From Octopus vulgaris (lineage: Eukaryota): 64,000 nt of DNA. Position numbers and translations under genes: made by a program. A model generated the notes under the pieces. That model was not told where the DNA came from and did no database searches. It saw only the letters and a list, made by a program, of their open reading frames with translations. Positions 1 through 58,105 of this stretch are shown here, one piece after another; position 1 is the first letter of the stretch, and each line of letters begins with the position of its first letter. The DNA is taken from assembly GCA_951406725.2 (NCBI GenBank), contig OX597818.1, positions 56,048,001 through 56,112,000 of the forward strand, read 5' to 3'.

Positions 1-760
1 TCTTCCTCTTACTGTAACATTTTCTCTTTTTTTTTCTCTTTGCTAATTCTACTCTTGACTTCACACTCATTCTATCCCTTTCCTCGTAGCTATTTTCGTA
101 GATAATTATCTCATGATTTCATTGATGCTCTGTTTGTAATGAAAATTTATCATGCTTAGCTAGCTTACTGCATTTGTCATCCATAATTCTATGGAAAATG
201 TTTGACAATTCCCTCTTGAAGTTACCTACACATCAAGCTTCAAGCGAGTTGATTACAATTTTTGCTTATTTGCTGCGCATCATATTTCCTTATTATTTAC
301 TCCTGTTTGCATAATATGCGTTTATGAGCCAACCATTCACAGCATGTTTCAAACAGCTGTAAAGATCTTCCTCCAACCTGTAATATGTATATTAATTATA
401 GCATTAATTATTTGTCCATCTTTTAACTTTATTACTCGCTCGAGCTCAGCAATCGTGTCGCCAACTTTTGCTTTGTAAGAGTTAGAGAAGTTGATCAGAT
501 CGAGTAGTAATTCGATATTAATCTATTACACAGTTGCACAAACAACTTCTATAAATACATTTACGCATGTATGATATATATATATATATATATGTGTGTA
601 TATTGGCAGGGCTGGCCTGCTAGGTAGTCGGCCAGAATGCTAGAAGAAGATCATCAACGATCAAACTACAAGGGAAATTCTCTAGAGGAAGAATTCAGCG
701 AACACCAGAACCAACTTTGGCGGGCAGGACATATGAAAAATTAAATAAATAACAGACTTA

Positions 761-836
761 AATGCATACCTCGGTTTCGGTCTTAACAAAAGAATTACTT
801 GCATAATTTAAGTGTCCGTGACTTCTTCAGTACATT
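761..836 (-). ncRNA. Type I hammerhead ribozyme motif (mirror copy)
   Basis: Reverse complement of 846-921; core and stems intact, one difference in the stem II loop. Confidence 0.75.
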
Positions 837-845
837 CGGTCCTCG

Positions 846-921
846 AATGTACTGAAGAAGTCACGGACACTTGAATTATGCAAGTAATTCTTTTGTTAAG
901 ACCGAAACCGAGGTATGCATT
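846..921 (+). ncRNA. Type I hammerhead ribozyme motif
   Basis: AATGTA-CTGAAGA-AGTC...GACC-GAAA-CC GA GGT-A-TGCATT: stem I AATGTA/TGCATT, core CUGANGA and GAAA, short stem III ACC/GGT, GUA cleavage triplet (cut after 915). Confidence 0.75.
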
Positions 922-1136
922 TAAGTCTGTTTTTTATTTAATTTTTCATATGTCCTGCCCGCCAAATTTGGTTCTGGTGTTCGCTGAATTCTTCCTCTAG
1001 AGAATTTCCCTTGTAGTTTGATCGTTGATGATCTTCTTCTAGCATTCTGGCCGGCTACCTAGCAGGCCAGCCCTGCCAATATACACATATACACATATAT
1101 TTGAATTTTCTCTGACTCCTCAGATTTTTTGAATGC

Positions 1137-2275: not shown

Positions 2276-2764
2276 TAGCTATTAACAACGGAAGCAGCTT
2301 TTTTATTAAGCTGAATGTATAAATTAAGATGTGTGCGTGCGTGTGTGCATGTATGTATGTATATATGTGTATGTTGTACGTGAGTATATATATAATGTAT
2401 TCGTCCGGCGCAGTTTAAAACTTAAGTTGCGTGACAAATAGCCAGAATTCAGAACTCTCTGTGTATTTCCTTTCCTGTATTGTAACTGTATCTTTTGTTA
2501 TGAACCCCGGGTTTGAGTGTTACACAGACTATATGTAGAAAACAAAACATGAGAGCTTGTTCATAAGATATTTAGTTACAGCATCTTACGTGCGTTTCAT
2601 TAACATAGGGTCATTATGAGTTACATAATATAACATAATATAAATTACATTGTCAAGGTTTATTGTCAAATCATCAGAAATGTGTAGCTTTTTATACCTA
2701 ACATTATTTTATAGAAATTCACCCTCGTAGACGTGTGTGTGAGAAAGAGAGGGAGAGAGAGTGT

Positions 2765-4877: not shown

Positions 4878-5330
<453 letters not shown>

Positions 5331-5710
5331 ATATTTCTTTTTACTTTGGTAGTTAGGGGTTGATTTGACTCTTATTTCTAGCAATGCTGGGGCTGACTTG
5401 CACACTTAATCGCTTCAGTGACGATCGTACCTGTGCCTTTTGGTTGTAAATTGCAAATAGCCACCTTATATGTGTGTGTGTGTATGTATGTATATATGTA
5501 TGCATTTAGGTGTGTCTGTATATATTTATATATTTTATGCGTGTGTATGTATATATATATTGATATTTTAGATTGGAAGTCCACCTGAAGATTGTCGATC
5601 AAGACAAGAAACAATTGTAGTAGCGGTTTTTTTGACTATTTATTAAAATTTTATGTATTGATTAAGTCTTTCCTTGTTTGTTTTGCAAAATAGTGGTTTT
5701 GTCTCTAATA

Positions 5711-5749
<39 letters not shown>

Positions 5750-5752
5750 TGA

Positions 5753-5922
5753 CTGTAGGAGTGGCTGTGTAGTAAATAGCTTGCTTACCAACCACATGGT
5801 TCTGGGTTCAGTCCCACTTGGGCAAGTGTCTCCTGCTATAGCCTCGGGCCGACCAAAGCCTTGTGAGTGGATTTGGTAGACGGAAACCTAAAGACGCCCG
5901 TCGTATATATGTATATATACAC

Positions 5923-5969
<47 letters not shown>

Positions 5970-6312
5970 TGTATGTATGTATGTATGTATGCATGTATGT
6001 ATGTATGTATGTATGTATGTATGTATGTATGTATGTATGTATGTATGTATGTATGTATGTATGTATGTATGTGTGTATGTATGTATGTATGTATGCTTGT
6101 TTGTGTGTCTGTGTTTGTTCCCCCATCATCGCTTGACAACCGATGCTGGTATGTTTACGTCCCTGTAATTTAGCGGTTCGGCAAAGAGAGACCGGTAGAA
6201 TAAGTACTAGGCTTACAAGGAGTAAGTCCTGGGGGTCGACTTACGCGACTAAAAGGCGGTGCTCCAGCATGGCCGCAGTCAAATGACTGGAACAAGTAAA
6301 AGAGTAAAAGAT
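5753..6312 (+). mobile_element. SINE family A with expanded internal (TATG)n
   Basis: Same head, body and tail as the other family A copies. Confidence 0.9.
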
Positions 6313-16315: not shown

Positions 16316-17267
16316 CAGTAATCCCTCGCCATATCGCGGTTCACCTATCACGCAATTAGTACATCGCGGTTCACCTATTGCGCACTCAGTACATCGCGGA
16401 TTTTCCTGGCTAACATATGTAAATTTATATCGCTGGCCTCTCAGTATATCGCGGATTTTTGCGGCTGATAAGTATTTATATGTTTTTAGGCTTTAAATTT
16501 TTTCTGTGGTAAAATAAGTATTTTCACGCCTAAAAACTAATAAATCAATAAATGAAAGTACAATACAGTACTGCACTGTATAACACATTAATTAGAATAT
16601 ATTAAAAGAAAGTACGTAGTGTACCGTAGATGAGGAAACAAAGAATCGCTCATGCTGTATGGAAAGCGAAACTCGGGAGGTGAGTGCGTGGTGGTGTTTT
16701 GCATTTGTAATAAAATATATATCTCTTTCTCTTTCTCTTTTACTTGTTTCAGTCATTTGACTGCGGCCATGCTGGAGCACCGCCTTTAGTCGAGCAAATC
16801 GACCCCGGGACTTATTCTTTGTAAGCCCAGTACTTATTCTATCGGTCACTTTTGCCGAACCGCTAAGTGACGGGAACGTAAACACACCAGCATCGGTCGT
16901 CAAGCAATGCTAAGGGGACAAACACACACACACAAACACACACATACATATATATATACATATATACGACAGGCTTCTTTCAGTTTCCGTCTACCAAATC
17001 CACTCACAAGGCATTGGTCGGCCCGGGGCTATAGCAGAAGACACTTGCCCAAGGTGCCACGCAGTGGGACTGAACCCGGAACCATGTGGTTGGTTAGCAA
17101 GCTACTTACCACACAGCCACTCCTGCGCCTATATATACAAATATATATACAAATTATAAAAATAATTTTTTAAATATATACAGTACAGAACTGTTTCTAC
17201 TTCGCGGATTTTCACATATCGTGAGGGTATTTGAAGCGTAACACCTGCGATAGTCGAAGGATTACTG
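16316..17267. mobile_element. pogo/Tigger-like MITE interrupted by a SINE
   Basis: TIRs CAGTAATCCCTCG / CGAAGGATTACTG, TA at left end, repeated subterminal ATCGCGG motifs. Confidence 0.75.
16722..17130 (-). mobile_element. SINE family A nested in the MITE
   Basis: Full head-to-tail match to family A. Confidence 0.9.
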
Positions 17268-17916
17268 CATACAAAAGAATTGTTTTATTTCAACAGTTAA
17301 AAACATCAATTTGTACTATTTGAATGACACTGTTAACAACCGCCGCCGTTCCTCCCACACACACATATTCATACACGCACACATTCACATACACACATAC
17401 ATACACACAAACATCTTCTCAAACGAAGAAAGCAGTCTAATTTTGTTAAGCGAACGTGTTGTTTTGAGAGTTACACAACAGCATTTCTGCCATTCTTTTG
17501 CTAGCGTTGCTAGACACAAAAACGCTTTGAAATGAGTTACATCAGAAACAATATATTTTCCTATATTCCAAAGTAACAGCTGGAGTTAGCCTTAAGCTGT
17601 GTGCGGAGCGATATGTATTACACCTGACGGTTTAGGGCTTATGGTACTGCAAGACTGATTTCCAAAACTGGGAACGAGGAGAGAAAGTAGACAAAGCCGA
17701 TGCTGTATGTACCTGTTTATAAGCTAATTGCACAATATACGGAACGACACAGCATCGGAATACAGGTGCCGACGTTAAACCTTAGTTACTATCAATTTTG
17801 CAGCGTAATACGTGAACGTTTTGCGCACCAAAATTACAAGAAACGATGTGCTGGTAGAAACGGGGTTTCCATGGTCGTGCAAGAACTAGTGACACCCGAA
17901 GAATAAAGGGTTATAA

Positions 17917-18148
17917 GGCGGTGAGCTGGCAGAATTGTTAGCACGCCGGGCGAAATGCTCAGCGGTATTTCGTCTGCCGCTACGTTCTGATTTCAAATTC
18001 CACCGAGGTCGACTTTGCCTTTCATCCTTTCGGGGTCGATTAAATAAGTACCAGTTACGCATTGGGGTCGATGTAATCGACTTAATCCGTTTGTCTGTCC
18101 TTGTTTGTCCTCTCTGTGTGTAGCTCCTTGTGGGCAGTAAGAAAAATA
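17917..18148 (+). mobile_element. SINE family B, full length, with 16-bp TSD
   Basis: TSD AAGAATAAAGGGTTAT on both sides; Deu/Nin-like GCCTTTCATCCTTTCGGGGTCGAT...AGTACCAG. Confidence 0.9.
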
Positions 18149-18290
18149 AGAATAAAGGGTTATTCCGGATCCGAGTCTTGACTGTGAAAAGAAACGCAAT
18201 GAGGCTGATGGTGCAAAACTGTTATTTGTGCTGCAGCAAGGACCACTTGAAGGCTTTCTGAGCGGAAGGACTTCAAAACTAGAAAAAAAA

Positions 18291-18417
18291 GCCAACCACA
18301 TGGTTCCGGGTTCAGTCCCACTGCGTGGCATCTTGGGCAAGTGTCTTCTGCTATAGCCCCGGGCCGACCAAAGCCTTGTGAGTGGATTTGGTAGACAGAA
18401 ACTGAAAGAAGCCCGTC

Positions 18418-18465
<48 letters not shown>

Positions 18466-18685
18466 ATGTGTTTGTGTGTCTGTGTTTGTCCCCCTAGCAT
18501 TGCTTCACAACCGATGCTGGTGTGTTTACGTCCCCGTCACTTAGCGTTTCGGCAAAAGAGACCGATAGAATAAGTACTGGGCTTACAAAGAATAAGTCCC
18601 GGGGTCGATTTGCTCGACTTAATGCGGTGCTCCAGCATGGCCGCAGTCAAATGACTGAAACAAGTAAAAGAGTAAAAGAGTAAGA
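18291..18685 (+). mobile_element. SINE family A, 5'-truncated
   Basis: Begins at CCAACCACATGG, ends in GTAAAAGAG repeats. Confidence 0.9.
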
Positions 18686-19774
18686 GAGAGATAGCAATAA
18701 CAACGAAAGCAAGCAACAGAAAGTGTTGCTCTCTAAGTCCCGTCGGTATAGGCTAAGGAAATAGCAGAAGAGATTTTCTCATTCTCTGTTTCAGAAAACA
18801 GCAACACCTGTACCATAATATTAGCTATTAGCACCATCTCTTTGTTTTGTGATGAGGTGGACATGGAACACGAGAGGTAGAAGAAATAGGAATAAACGGA
18901 AAAGTACAACCCTTTCTTCAAGATAAAATAGTGTACCCCACCAAAAAAGGTGAGTATAAAGGGCCCTAAGGGAAGCCATCTACGAGATAGCCAGGATTTC
19001 ATCGTCGTTAGAAAAACCATCAGCAAGGTGGCGTAAAAATCACGTCAGACCACGAGGATAATGCGCTAACTTGAAGAAATGGACAAAAACACCAAAGGCA
19101 TTCAGAAGACATTTAGATTATAGACTGATTGTGACAATCACAGTAAGAGTCTAACATCCTTCGAAAAGCGCCTACCCGGGTAAGGTGGTAAGCAACTTTC
19201 TCAGGCCATCGCAGAAAATACCTTCAAACACGTTTTGATGCATCAGTTTCCAGTGCATCGAAATGTGCTCTAACATAACGTTAGTGTTTGGGGTATGACC
19301 TTATTTTTTTTATAGTTTTTCCTATTTTAATTTCTTTATAAATTATAACTCATGGGATGCACACACAGAAAGACAGAATGGACTAAACAGGACAGGAGAC
19401 ACGTGGGATGGAGAATTGCCGAAGAAGTCTCAGGATGTGTGACGAAAGATTTCAGACGAAGGACACGAAAATAGGAATAAGAATAAGGCTGAAGGGAAGA
19501 ACGAGTATATAAAGGCAAAAAAGGGGAAAAAATGGATATCCCCAAATATAACAATGTAACTCATTAATTTAATTTTAATTATTTTAGGCTGTTACGAAAA
19601 AAAGTAATAGATCTCAATATATTGTACAAAGGCTATGCCGCAACAGTCAATTTTAATATAACTTTCTATATTTCAATGCTTTAACATTTTTTTTTTAAAT
19701 GGTTTCCGCATGTTTGAATTGATCCTCGAGACCAATGGACAGTAAGAAACGAACGTCTTACCACGCATTTCGTC

Positions 19775-46315: not shown

Positions 46316-47215
46316 AATATATATATAATACGTTTATATATTTGTTGTGCAAGATTTTTATTGGCTAAACTGGCAAAATGACCATTCCGAAATATAACAA
46401 TATATATATATAATATTAAATATAAACGCAAACGCATAGACATGTGTGTGTATACATATATTTGTAAGCAAATGTATGTATGTATTTATACATATTTATG
46501 TGTGTGTATAAAACTTACAAAAGTGTATAATGTATAAACAAGCAACATGGCGTATACTGAATGTAAAAACGAACAGGGGACAAACAGAAGATCCGTAATT
46601 CCTCATCGGTTATCGACCAGTTGGTGATATTTAGTTTCGCACATTTGAAGATAAATCTGAGTGCTTCTCAATTGGCGGCGCGACATATATACACACAAAC
46701 ACGCACATATGCATATATAAATACATACATACATTCATACATACATACTTGAAAAAGTTGAAAAGGCAGAAACCGGTACTATCCGTTACAAAATGTATTT
46801 CATTTCAACTTTGTGCTATTTTCCTTATATATAACTCGTGTGTCACTATCAACATTCTACACACATGCATGCATACATACATACATACATACATCCATAC
46901 ATACATACATACATACATACATACATACATCAACACATATACTTACATGCATACATACACACAGCACACTTTGAAAGCTATGCGTTTTCAATCCAGGAAG
47001 AGGAGATTGCCACAAAGTACTTGGTGAACAAGAGAGGCAGTGACGTTCTTGTAATCCCAAAGTTCAACCGTATGTGTAGGCTATGTCAGGTTTCTGTTGA
47101 AGACATTCATGATGCTTCGACCAAACTATGGTTGATCGGAACTCCATTGATAATCCCTTTCTACACTACACGGTCCTGCATTGCTGTGTTCAGACCTTTA
47201 ATATCCCGCCCTGAA

Positions 47216-47453
47216 GGCGGCGAGCTAGCAGAAACGTTAGCACGCCGGGCGAAATGCTTAGCGGTATTTCGTCTGCCGTTACGTTCTGAGTTCAAATTCC
47301 GCCGAGGTCGACTTTGCCTTTCATCCTTTCGGGGTCGATACATTAAGTACCAGTTACGCACTGGGGTCGATGTAATCGACTTAATGCCTTTGTCTGTCCT
47401 TGTTTGTCCCATCTGTGTTTAGCCTCCTGTGGGCAGTAAAGAAATAAAGAAAT
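47216..47453 (+). mobile_element. SINE family B nested in the RTE relic
   Basis: Full copy; TSD AATATCC.GCCCTGA. Confidence 0.9.
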
Positions 47454-48030
47454 AAATATCCAGCCCTGAGTCGTGAGATATGGTATCAGGAAATGTCAGT
47501 TTCTTGGAGAAAACACTTCCAGGGGGATGCCATAGGAACAAGGATGAAATAACCTTGATCTCTAGCTGATGTTCTGTATCTCTCTGAGCAGGTTTGTATA
47601 TGTTCCATCTAGTTGTTTTTCTAAAAGATACGATAAAGTCCAGGTCTCTGATCCATAGAGAAGGACCGGCTCAATCAGTGTTCTAAATGTTTTAACTTTT
47701 AACATGGGTGGAAGGTTTCAGTACCAGATCTTAACAAATCTGTTACATGCCTCCCAAGCAAGAGCTTTGGAGATGCGAAAGTCCTTTTGGGAGTCTACTG
47801 TTTGTGATCCGAGATATTTGAAGTCGTCAACGTTTTTGATTGATATATTATTGAGCGATTTAAGTTCAGTTAACTTGGAGGAGGTCGTGATAAACTCTGT
47901 CTTACTCTCGTTGCAGTAAAGGCCGACCTGGTTTGCTGCTTTCTCCAGTGCTTCTAACAAAGATTCTGCATATTCAATACAATGGGACAACAAGGCAAGA
48001 TTGTCAGCAAAGTTAAGATCCTCCATACCC

Positions 48031-48261
48031 ATTTCTTTACTACCCACAAGGGGCTAAACATAGAGGGGACAAACAAGGACAGACAAACGGATTATGTCGG
48101 TTACATCGACCCCCAGTGCGTAACTGGTACTTTATTTATCGACCCCGAATGGATGAAAGACAAAGTCGACCTCGGCGGAATTTGAACTCAGAAAGTAACG
48201 GCAGACGAAATACTGCAAAACATTTCGCCCGGTGTGCTAACGTTTCCGCCAGCTTGCCGCC
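48031..48261 (-). mobile_element. SINE family B nested in the RTE relic
   Basis: Full copy; 17-bp TSD TTAAGATCCTCCATACC. Confidence 0.9.
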
Positions 48262-49234
48262 TTAAGATCCTCCATACCGTCTGGGGAAATGCGTAAAACA
48301 CAGTAGAGAACAAGGATGAACAAGAAAGGAGCGAGTGTGTCACGCTGCATAACACCTGCTTCACCTGTATGTGATTAGCAGCTGTCCTAAAATGTCGTCA
48401 CGGTAATACCTCTCTATGTGGCAAGATGTTGTTGCTAAAACAATTTACAATGATATCCGCAAGAAAGACTGTCCTGAAATATACTTAGAAGATCTCTCTG
48501 TTATGGTATACATTCATAAACACCCACTCAAGAAATACTGCCGGAATATTCCCATCAAAATCTCTGTCAAGTGTAAACATAACAGGCCGTATACTGTCGT
48601 TTGGGACTGAGGAGCAAAGTATACATACCCATACCATCATAGAGGTTAGCTGCCCTGTAGATATAAATATCTCTTTGAAAACCAAAGAAAAAGAGGATAT
48701 CAACGGACAACTGCTTCGAAGCCTCCAGCTTCTATATCCATACTATGAGTTCCTATCCATACCAATAATAATTGGAGCGTTAGGTTTTGTTTAAAGGAAA
48801 ATCTGAATAAACTGGGATTTTCAGAAAGAGAAATCGACCGGCTGATTCGTACATTACAAGAGCAATCTAAGAGTGGAATAGCGGTTCGGCAATAATAATC
48901 GATAGAATAAATACTAGGCTTAAAATAAAAAATAAATAGTGGGGTCGATTCATTAAGTCAAAAATGTGGCATGGCCACATTCTAATGACGGAAACAAGTA
49001 AAAGATCAACGATAAAAATAAGATACCATAGTAGGCATGCGCGCGCCTGCGTGGATGATGTCGTATAACGGGTGTTTAAAACCAGTGCACGTAAATATCG
49101 GGGTGTATGGAAGCTTATTCATAACAGGTACATAGCTACTAAGAAACGTACCTACCTATACATACATACATACATACATACATACATACATACATACATA
49201 CATACATACCTACCTACATACATACATACATACA

Positions 49235-49328: not shown

Positions 49329-49885
49329 TTGGGTTATGCCACAAATAACGCGGTTCTTTTATACTTCTTTTATTTTTCAAAATTAAGATAAACAAAGTTC
49401 CTTTTTAATCTAAAATATACTCTCCTTCATTTTCTACAATACTCTTCCAACTATCTGGTAGACTTGCAAGCCCCCTCTTTTAAAATTCACTCGTCCATGA
49501 TGAAGAATACTCCTCCAGTAACTGTTCTGACCTCGTCTACAGAATTTATATTTTTTCCGTTCAAATGATTTTGAAGACTGTGGAATAAATGATAATCAGA
49601 TGGGGCAATGTCCGGTGAATATGATGGGTAAGTCATCGTTTCCCATTTAAACTGCTCCAGCTTTTGGAATGTTATCCTCGCTTCCTGATGGAAGAACTCC
49701 TTTCGTCTTGAAAGCGAAGATGGTCCGTTTTCTTCTAGGGCAGATTTAAGTCGTCCAAGCTGCTCGCAGCAGATCTCCTTTGTTATCGTTTCGATTGGGT
49801 TTAAAATTTCAAAGTGGACTAAAACTTTCATATCCCACCAAACAGATAACAACACCTTACGTGGGTGAAGACCTTCTTTAGCCAA
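49329..49885 (-). mobile_element. mariner 3' half (mellifera-like)
   Basis: LHPRKVLLSVWWD and YSPDIAPSDYHLF motifs; terminal TTGGGTTATGCCACAAATAAC beside TA. Confidence 0.85.
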
Positions 49886-49991
49886 GTTGCGCATGCGCAG
49901 GATGAAAAAGAAATGACTGAGGAAAGACTAACTGTTAAATTCATGAAATCTGACAACCTCGTTTAGTAAGGTATCAGATTTCACTCCTTAA

Positions 49992-51308: not shown

Positions 51309-52568
51309 TTAGGTTGTTCTGAAAATAATGGCCGCTCTAAGTGTTGTGTTTTGAAGCTGCTAATTTTATCATAGTATTTTAGTTATATTTTAGGTGAATT
51401 TCGCTATACTTAATAATTTATGTATACTCTTTAATAATTTTCTACTTATTTCAAAGAGAATGCATTCTTGAAGCATAGGCGCCCTTAATTATGAACATGA
51501 CAAGAAAGGAACTTTGCTTACTTTTCTTGCATGAGTTCAAACTTGGGCACAATGCCTCCCAAACTGCTGCCAATATCAAAAGAGCATGGAGAGAGGGGTC
51601 CACAAGTGACTGCACAGTAAGAAGGTGGTTTCAGAAATTCCATAGTGGTGATGAGAGCCTTGAAGATGAAGAAGGTTGAGGATGGTCATGCAGTCTTGAC
51701 AATGTACAATTGAAAGCAATTTTTGAGCAAAACCTGCATCAGAGTGTCAGCGAAATGTCTCAGGCACTTGGTATTGCAATGGTCTCACACAATCTGCAGA
51801 AGATTGGTATGGTGAAAAAGCTCGATAAATGGGTACCACATGAGCTCAATGAAAATTGAAAAGTTTGGAGTTTTGAAGTGTGCTCAGTGCTCTTTCTACA
51901 AAACATCAATGATCCTTTTCTTGACCAAATAGTCACTTGTGATGAAAATTGGATCTTTTATGATAACCGTAAATGATCAAGTCAATAGTTTGATCATGAT
52001 GAGTCCCCCAAATATTTCCCAAAGCCAAAGTTGCATCAGCAAAAGATTATGGTGACTGGCTGGTGGTCTGCAATTGAAGTTGTCCATTACAGCTTTCTGG
52101 AAGCCAATCAGAGCATTACAGCAGAGGTTTACTGCAATCAACTTGCTGAAATGCATGCTCACTTGCAAAAAAATGAGACCTGCATTGGTGAATCGGCATG
52201 GCCCAATTCTGCTCCATGATAATGCAAAGCCACATGTTGCAAGAATGACTCTGCAGAAACTCAGACTTGGGATACAAGACTTTTACCACATCCTCCATAT
52301 TCTCCTGATCTTTCACCCACTGACTACCATTTTTTAAGTGATAAAACTTTCGGGTCTAAACCAGAGGTGGAATCAGCTTTCAAAGATTTCTTAGCATCAA
52401 AACCAATAAGTTTTTTATCAATGAGGCATAAATAATCTCATTGATCGATGGCAGAGATGCAGAGATGTTCACAGCTCATACTTTGACCAATCAAAACATT
52501 CCTATTGTCAATTTTTCCAGAATAAAATTATGTTTCTGAAATTGGCCATTATTTTCTGAACAACCTAA
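51309..52568 (+). mobile_element. Full-length defective mariner (cecropia/Hsmar1-like)
   Basis: TIRs TTAGGTTGTTC.GAAAATAATGGCC at both ends, TA TSD, ~1.26 kb; transposase from 51491 with WVPHEL, TCDENW, HDNAKPH and YSPDLSPTDY; stops and frameshifts. Confidence 0.93.
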
Positions 52569-56817: not shown

Positions 56818-57554
56818 ATGTGTGTGTGTACCCTAGTCTTGCCATCGTGAGCATCTCCATCATACGAGCCATGAAGGTTCATTTCCACTCTTCTGTGGAA
56901 AACATGTCCGGACGTCGGAAAATATCTTGCTTGGAAACAGGTGATGGTTGGCAACAGAAAGAGCATCCAGCCATAGAAAAGCAGCATCAACAAATTCTGT
57001 CTGACCCATGCAAGCATGGTGGGAAAAGTGGATGTTGAATGATTATCGTTAAGCATCATTATGGCTGCTGTTTTCTTCCCCCAACTCCTGCAACCTCTGA
57101 CCACATGTCATCTCTCTTGTCATCCCCTCATCAACTGCATCATCATTACTACCCTGTTGCTGCGCAACACTGCCCTTTTTTTTCTCATCCCTTTATCTTC
57201 CCCAACTCATGAACTACTGGCTGCTCCCCACCCCATTATTCATCACTATCTACAGCCCCCCCCTTAATCTTATCCAGTCATTACAGATGTTGTCTACTTC
57301 CTCCATTTCCCCCTATCTCTTGACCCCTACACTCTTGCAAACCCCCACCCACTCACATCTACTTTCTCTGTCTCCACTTCTGCATACTTCATACCCTAAG
57401 GCAGCATTCCTCAACCAGGGAACGAGGATTCCCCTGGAACCCTAGGGTTCCGTTAGAAAGAGTGAGATAAGCTAATGCTAATTTCATGATCTTAATATTA
57501 CTATATATGCATAACATATTATTAGTTATTGTAATATAGATATATACACACATA

Positions 57555-58105
57555 CACGAGGGTGAGTCAAAAAGTAATGCCATTTTGTTTAGGACAGGTA
57601 TAATTACCAACAGAGGAACATGTATCATACATCAAAATGAAGCTGGTCTTCTGTGGATCACAACATCCCTACTTCTCAACATAGTCACCATTTCTCTCAA
57701 TAGCAATGTTCCACCTTTGAATGAGAGCATGTATCCCTGCCCCGTAAAATTCTGTTGACTGTTCTTTGAGTCACTCTTCACTACAGTTTTACTTCCTGTC
57801 ACTAGAATAATTTTTGGCCCCATGAAAGAGGGCTTTGAGAGGCAAATATTATTCCAGTGACAAGGAAGTAAAACTGTAGTGAAGAAATGGCTCAAAGAAC
57901 AGTCAACAGAATTTTATGGGGCAGGATACATGCTCTCATTCAAAGGTGGAACATTGCTATTAAAAGAAATGGTGACTATGTTGAGAAGTAGGGATGTTGT
58001 GATCCACAGAGGACCAACTTCATTTTGATGTATGATACGTGTTCCTGTGTTGGTAATTATACCTGTCCAAAACAAAATGGCATTACTTTTTGACTCACCC
58101 TCGTG
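57555..58105. mobile_element. Foldback mariner-derived element made of two inverted 3' ends
   Basis: Ends CACGAGGGTGAGTCAAAAAGT with TA TSD; ~255-bp arms; right arm encodes a frameshifted mariner C-terminus (FGPMKEG...VKTVVKKWLKEQSTEFY...HALIQRWNIAIKRNGDYVEK*). Confidence 0.85.

Follow-up and report, generated by a model that had tools for sequence, protein, structure and literature searches.

Anatomy of the locus

The window, i.e. the whole 64-kb stretch of DNA that was analysed, is repeat-rich animal DNA and includes a long palindrome. Self-comparison of the sequence delineates arms of 244 bp each (595–838 and 844–1087) around an apparent loop of 5 nt (839–843), with four mismatches between the arms (628/1054, 715/967, 750/932 and 809/873); the alignment of the arms thus confirms the ~490-bp palindrome with 244-bp arms, 5-nt loop and about four mismatches described in an earlier, sequence-only reading. 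The whole palindrome is predicted to fold into a hairpin of −456 kcal/mol, and none of 100 shuffled sequences folds equally well. The part outside the microsatellite is 604–1078, with TA/TG tracts on either side and unique flanks that differ from each other. The mirror symmetry enters the microsatellite by 9 nt and extends patchily, by 22 nt, through it to 582/1100.

Two copies of one module, joined head to head, make up this structure. The left copy (604–845, minus strand) is, by the arm alignment and the family contigs described below, a 5'-truncated end module of a high-copy repeat, likely a Penelope-like pLTR; its sense strand is the minus strand of the window, and its 5' end takes in the ‘loop’ 839–843 and the CG at 844–845. 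The right copy (844–1078, plus strand) is the same module with a 5' end 7 nt shorter, and fits the family sequence from 844 on but not at 843. The copies meet at a head-to-head junction (837–845), defined by the arms and the family contigs, with a self-complementary 2-nt CG overlap (844–845) and the 5-nt apparent loop. Their 5' ends lie 8 nt (left) and 1 nt (right) upstream of stem I of the hammerhead motif that each contains. No further copy of the 844–1078 family, in tandem or otherwise, is present within the 64-kb window.

The tracts on both sides, (TA)n/(TG)n on the left (574–603, with ATAT at 600–603) and (TA)/(CA) on the right (1079–1100, with ATAT at 1079–1082), are the likely insertion target. 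The (TA)n or AT-rich target is a weak mark because such tracts are very common in the window, and the ATAT on both sides also belongs to the microsatellite, so that a target duplication is indistinguishable from it. Both arms end alike, at 604 and 1078, and a one-sided tail of 30–40 bp is not evident (563–607 was skipped in the contig alignment).

Close to this end, folding gives a GC-rich terminal stem-loop on the sense strand (1042–1076, plus strand; mirror image 606–640), which is a weak feature given that equally good folds occur in 9 of 200 and 4 of 200 shuffles; in this model it is a possible counterpart of the stem-loop at which reverse transcriptase (RT) starts. The arm has no coding frame, the longest frame with an ATG having 40 aa and another short one 16 aa. 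Just to the right of the palindrome begins a tandem duplication of ~390 bp (1136–1918), microsatellites included, which is either real or a duplication in the assembly.

The hammerhead motifs

The plus strand carries a type I hammerhead motif of the dimer type (845–922), recognised by a descriptor and by folding, with stem I at 845–851/916–922, helix III at 907–914, the core elements CUGAAGA (852–858), GAAA (904–907) and GUA, and a predicted cut after A915. The mirror-image motif on the minus strand (760–837), recognised in the same way, has 20 of its 21 pairs canonical and a predicted cut between 767 and 766; the change at 809 disrupts one pair of its helix II cap. A type I descriptor that requires 6 bp or more in stem I matches only these two sites in the 64 kb, at 852 (plus) and 830 (minus). 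With a 7-bp stem I, none of 200 block-wise dinucleotide shuffles contains a match, and with 6 bp, 4 of 200 do. The earlier claim of one complete type I hammerhead per strand therefore stands for the motif, with cleavage as a prediction.

In place of the ‘unusually long stem II loop’ of that reading, folding predicts an extended helix II (859–903, plus strand) in three parts (860–862/900–902, 866–869/894–897 and 873–879/884–890) capped by a GCAA tetraloop. This structure of 3, 4 and 7 pairs is the minimum free energy fold and makes up 71% of the ensemble, with a z-score of only −1.36. The base of the helix can be drawn with an A859·C903 mismatch (−10.0 kcal/mol) or with an unpaired A followed by G860–C903 and bulges (−7.8 kcal/mol). 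In the family, the variants found at 781 and 801 (numbered on the left arm), in contigs and in one case in a loose end, preserve a pair and a GNRA loop, and at no core position does the family contig variant table list variation of 3% or above for the DNA runs.

A search with the Rfam hammerhead models, which had been proposed as a check, came out negative: none of the 19 matches at E ≤ 10 for 590–1090 is to a hammerhead model, nor is any among the 150 listed of the 367 matches in the window. The long helix II may explain this. The only Rfam matches at the palindrome, to hairpin-shaped miRNA models, score below the thresholds and were discarded.

In unconstrained cofolding, two minimal sense copies form a double hammerhead with all 11 core bases unpaired, at −32.2 kcal/mol compared with −25.4 kcal/mol for two monomers. 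This prediction is lost on adding 13 bases, and the self-pairing energy of helix III is not special, as 31 of 60 permutations pair as well. In these folding models, the motif resembles the Penelope type that depends on dimers. The suggestion that a transcript starting near the centre could cleave itself as a monomer is not upheld, given a dimer-type helix III and the absence of stem I from the monomer prediction.

Another hammerhead-like match (2583–2684, minus strand) has a 5-bp stem I and a 6-bp stem II; at this laxest setting 10 of 200 shuffles also match. It yields no such fold, alone or as a dimer, and was rejected as a chance likeness or a decayed motif. A donor-like splice site at 913 (908–918) coincides in part with the GUA triplet of the cleavage site, and two pyrimidine-rich sequences resembling acceptors follow at 1000 and 1042 (984–1044); PLEs (Penelope-like elements) retain 5'-UTR introns near the ribozyme. 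No splice joint from 913 to 1000 or 1042 occurs in three contigs of run X10.

The repeat family in public contigs

The contig sets of 4 public runs out of 24 (X1, X2, X6 and X10) were aligned on 300–860, with 563–607 skipped. The arm is a high-copy repeat: its depth, summed over contigs and divided by that of the unique-flank contig, is 925–5135x in X1, 69–391x in X2 and 1547–5616x in X6, values that overcount, and a single 61-nt contig in X2 reaches a depth of 430.6, ~33-fold that of the flank (13.2). The X1 figures throughout cover ~80% of the X1 rows.

At least 19 family contigs (5 in X1, 3 in X2, 9 in X6 and 2 in X10) pass 845/846 into one common, non-palindromic sequence. At 851–860 the depth is zero in all four runs, and neither a strand-change joint nor a ‘go back’ joint occurs among those listed. 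The palindromic centre is thus not a feature of the family: it is private to the window copy, and the parent sequence continues past it. The window junction itself is in no contig of the four runs; assembled contigs drop rare forms, and the zero depth at the junction is therefore not read as absence.

The upstream motif of the parent has no match in the 64-kb window. The arm and family sequence have none in metagenome and prokaryote-genome collections, and a single match to a viral contig was dismissed as a 20-nt chance likeness that includes neither the core nor further similarity. Short family motifs are not found in one text supplement each of PMC8557442 and PMC13282606, the consensus libraries of which may hold the family.

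A second subfamily diverges before 637 (612–637, left-arm numbering) and retains a short hairpin around the TAG at 621–623; loose ends read by eye give one apparent double change in it, at 618/626. The left flank (300–562) is single-copy except for 319–375 and is present in organism B at ~8% difference (21 of 263 positions), so that an orthologous site exists there.

Relation to Penelope-like elements

The parent was very probably a Penelope-like element. The link to this group, drawn already in the sequence-only reading, is supported by the anatomy, which fits that described in PMC4209133, PMC3846280 and PMC8557442. The locus bears the non-coding marks of the end module of an EN+ PLE; a parent of the retrozyme type is also possible. 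Among these marks is 5' truncation with a second, inverted copy abutting the truncated end; here the copies start at 845 and 844 in a family that continues beyond 845. Neither RT nor GIY-YIG sequence was found in connection with the arm, for which 30 letters of the parent beyond the truncation were seen; GIY-YIG is found in none of the 140 window frames scanned (343 passed the complexity filter), and the sole RT match among those 140 lies 47 kb from the palindrome.

Among the inverted pLTRs of Penelope elements, the head-to-head form is the commonest, and the junctions have been read as products of self-priming (Arkhipova et al. 2013, PMC3846280); for PLEs, (TA)n targets and 5'-truncated copies in inverted orientation are on record too (Craig et al. 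2021, PMC8557442). The locus resembles the inverted pLTRs of EN+ PLEs in these two papers in its 5'-truncated inverted copy, short junction overlap, ~240-bp arms and (TA)n target, but has neither a coding body between the repeats nor a visible one-sided tail, and its junction overlap is 2 nt compared with 15 bp in the Adineta example (PMC3846280). According to one octopus annotation, Penelope-like elements are abundant and partly recent (PMC13282606). The combination of hammerhead, octopus and Penelope was found in PMC8557442 only, in a search that left most subscription papers outside.

The hammerheads of PLEs cleave weakly and only as dimers (PMC4209133). Like these metazoan motifs, the window motif has a long helix II, a small palindromic helix III, a predicted dimer fold and, in one of the two ways of drawing the base of helix II, an unpaired base between positions 9 and 10.1 (after A9); its own features in this comparison are the 14-bp helix II in three segments, the GNRA cap, the 7-bp stem I and the ambiguous base of helix II. 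Hammerhead pairs on opposite strands, 100–700 bp apart, were described in 2014 (Cervera and De la Pena, PMC4209133), whereas the cores of the present pair are only 22 nt apart. One PLE protein, a predicted dimer, both cuts and extends the two strands in vitro; it starts at an internal place of the RNA, downstream of the ribozyme, and accepts uncleaved RNA (PMC11167929). This behaviour fits the extent of the arms, from the upstream edge of the motif to ~160 nt past the cut site.

Origin of the palindrome

A Penelope-like element likely left the palindrome behind as a one-off scar of its insertion, in an arrangement that is already known, and we infer a single insertion event. In the account preferred here, which we hold at about even chances, two truncated copies of one hammerhead-bearing repeat were joined head to head in (TA)n by one Penelope-like insertion on two RNAs. 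The retroelement would have inserted into a (TA)n tract, both strands of the cut would have been primed and extended on two separate RNA copies, and the cDNAs, ending just upstream of the ribozyme at 845 and 844, would have been joined through the 2-nt CG overlap. That the two halves were copied from two different RNAs is, taken by itself, somewhat favoured.

The bearing evidence comes from the differences between the arms, which would have been identical at birth if copied from one template. At 715, 10, 7 and 23% of the depth (X1, X2 and X6) is left over for the left-arm letter, and at 750, 20, 0 and 24% (i.e. it is absent in X2); the leftover letters are taken to be those of the window from the lack of other rows in the variant table; at 809 the corresponding values are 0.06, 0 and 0.08%. 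Both the 715 and the 750 left-arm letters are carried by one X10 contig (record 9, depth 9.7, from another organism code) that holds parent sequence and is therefore another copy. The idea that 715, 750 and 809 are all private mutations of the left arm was accordingly dropped, the 715 and 750 letters segregating in the family. The remaining rare changes amount to about one per arm, 809 on the left and 1054 on the right; the 1054 letter also occurs in two loose ends of X6. The chance that two of four later mutations would match family letters is 0.002–0.03 with a random letter, and 0.11–0.22 with 3–5-fold mutability and a forced letter. Thus, two of the four arm differences appear to be family polymorphisms, a hint, drawn from sequence comparison, that favours two templates over self-priming.

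The main rival, possible but doubtful, involves a single template of the same Penelope-like parent: the cDNA stopped at 845, folded on its own CG (837–838 with 844–845, leaving the 5-nt loop) and copied itself, and the 715 and 750 differences came about afterwards, through slippage, polishing or gene conversion involving other copies. The near-perfect symmetry, the short loop and the 2-nt overlap follow directly from this scheme, as would the continuation of the mirror into the microsatellite, and self-priming is the published reading of such junctions (PMC3846280), from which the arm differences at the present locus hint at a departure. Moreover, 715 and 750 adjoin short runs, and the same letters could result there from slippage or from polishing in which reads of other copies took part. 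The DNA stem that would prime the second strand is, however, just 2 bp long (−0.1 kcal/mol), and the two family letters occur together in another copy. Furthermore, if a clustering of 5' ends immediately upstream of the ribozyme, as seen here in two copies, is general, near-symmetry arises without any snap-back.

The parent might instead have been a non-LTR retrozyme, short, non-coding and tandem or circular, that was moved in trans and left the head-to-head scar in the same way, but this is unlikely. The lack of a coding frame in the arm (at most 40 aa from an ATG), the very high copy number and a type I motif with a 7-bp stem I and a 2-bp helix III all fit animal non-LTR retrozymes, i.e. short non-coding high-copy repeats with type I hammerheads (PMC7229834; bioRxiv 10.64898/2026.07.22.740005), which are described as non-autonomous PLE derivatives (bioRxiv 10.64898/2026.07.22.740005). 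Retrozymes are, however, head-to-tail tandems able to dimerise in cis, whereas the window copies lie head to head on opposite strands and cannot; no tandem copy is found in the window, no ‘go back’ joint is listed in any of the four runs, and the probable extra base after A9 together with the long helix II fits the PLE motifs (PMC4209133).

An assembly or read-foldback artefact, with only one copy in the genome, is very unlikely, even though no contig of the four runs covers 851–860, a gap explicable by the loss of rare forms from contigs. The earlier judgement that the structure is not a simple read-foldback artefact is borne out: the mirror stops at the end of the element, the unique flanks differ, the arms differ at four sites, and the asymmetry of the junction follows the family sequence. 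In addition, X1 has a leftover depth at 809 (62.5) that matches that of the flank (62.8), as expected of the left arm, although this is suggestive only. The sequence-only proposal of a non-autonomous, MITE-like foldback family with a fixed centre and two ribozymes, for which the perfect hairpin anatomy and the presumed mariner-type palindromic MITE at 57552–58105 would speak, is hardly credible, since such an abundant family would cover 851–860 deeply, the depth there is zero in all four runs, and the family contigs go on with other sequence, which contradicts it for organisms A and B.

The object itself is ordinary retroelement debris of a described kind, and its value is that of a test case for how PLEs make inverted repeats and what their weak ribozymes do, both questions stated as open in PMC8557442 and PMC11167929. 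The head-to-head arrangement is already published; the new part is one hint that the arms of PLE inversions come from two templates. A literature search for a twin-priming account of Penelope inversions listed few papers, PMC3846280 among them; it covered only a minority of subscription papers and is no proof of novelty. A further, quite improbable extension is that the dimer-type PLE hammerhead is a signal for RNA dimerisation rather than mainly a cutter: two RNAs would pair through a swapped helix I and the palindromic helix III, a dimeric RT-endonuclease would prime both strands of one cut, and the cDNAs would stop at the upstream edge of the ribozyme and anneal. If this were true, inverted pLTR pairs would be two-template products, and the window locus a fossil with different family alleles in each arm.

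Predicted fate of the RNA

Whichever direction read-through transcription takes, the antisense arm comes out first, and the RNA would close into the 244-bp hairpin. For all eight start points, from 595 to 845, the predicted probability of stem I is 0, in support of the earlier view that the ribozyme is masked in the read-through hairpin. The two motifs of the window, lying on opposite strands, cannot dimerise in cis; given this, the burial in the hairpin and the need of helix III for a second sense copy, the ribozymes are predicted from these models to be inert here.

Inverted or palindromic repeats are expected to be hyper-edited (PMC5625713), and head-to-head pairs would be ready-made double-stranded RNA for ADAR. 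By analogy, the locus would be an ADAR substrate if transcribed: as with the palindromic Harbinger repeat of Xenopus, an ADAR substrate (PMC5625713), a repeat that folds on itself would need no partner to be hyper-edited, although in Xenopus the consensus is palindromic and here only the window copy is. The proposal that the palindrome is an ADAR substrate holds in part, at the level of the family, through one contig of another copy. A contig of another copy from organism B (X10, record 11) bears what looks by sequence like a hyper-editing signature, with seven listed A>G changes in 786–811 and, in a loose end (721–749), G in place of 9 of 15 A. The putative edits are on the strand complementary to the sense strand of the motif; apart from them, a single change departs from the family sequence. 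The depth is 3.7 in a run only guessed to be RNA and devoid of coverage on the window flank, one of the A>G places (790) is also a variant in DNA runs, and avoidance of a 5' G neighbour is not significant (0/16 compared with 4/20, p = 0.08). Most likely, the locus is neutral debris.

Other features of the window

No host gene is recognised in the 140 of 343 frames scanned, and the three matches obtained are all to mobile elements. These are a decayed fragment of a LINE-type RT and two mariner transposase fragments (47721–48053, minus; 49490–49927, minus; 51989–52216, plus), which are unrelated to the palindrome. A scan for bacterial promoters, irrelevant to an animal, gave 3 compared with 1.9 expected and was set aside.

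A second long palindrome (57552–58105), with arms ~92% alike and flanked by TA, is the source of a false MIR2630 match; its ends look like those of what we take to be a mariner-type MITE. Oppositely oriented pairs of SINE-like repeats, 77–90% alike, lie within 1–2 kb of each other at 16716–18693, 4879–6311 and 47211–48266; they are other ready sources of double-stranded RNA, so that the hammerhead-bearing palindrome is not a special ADAR target in this window.
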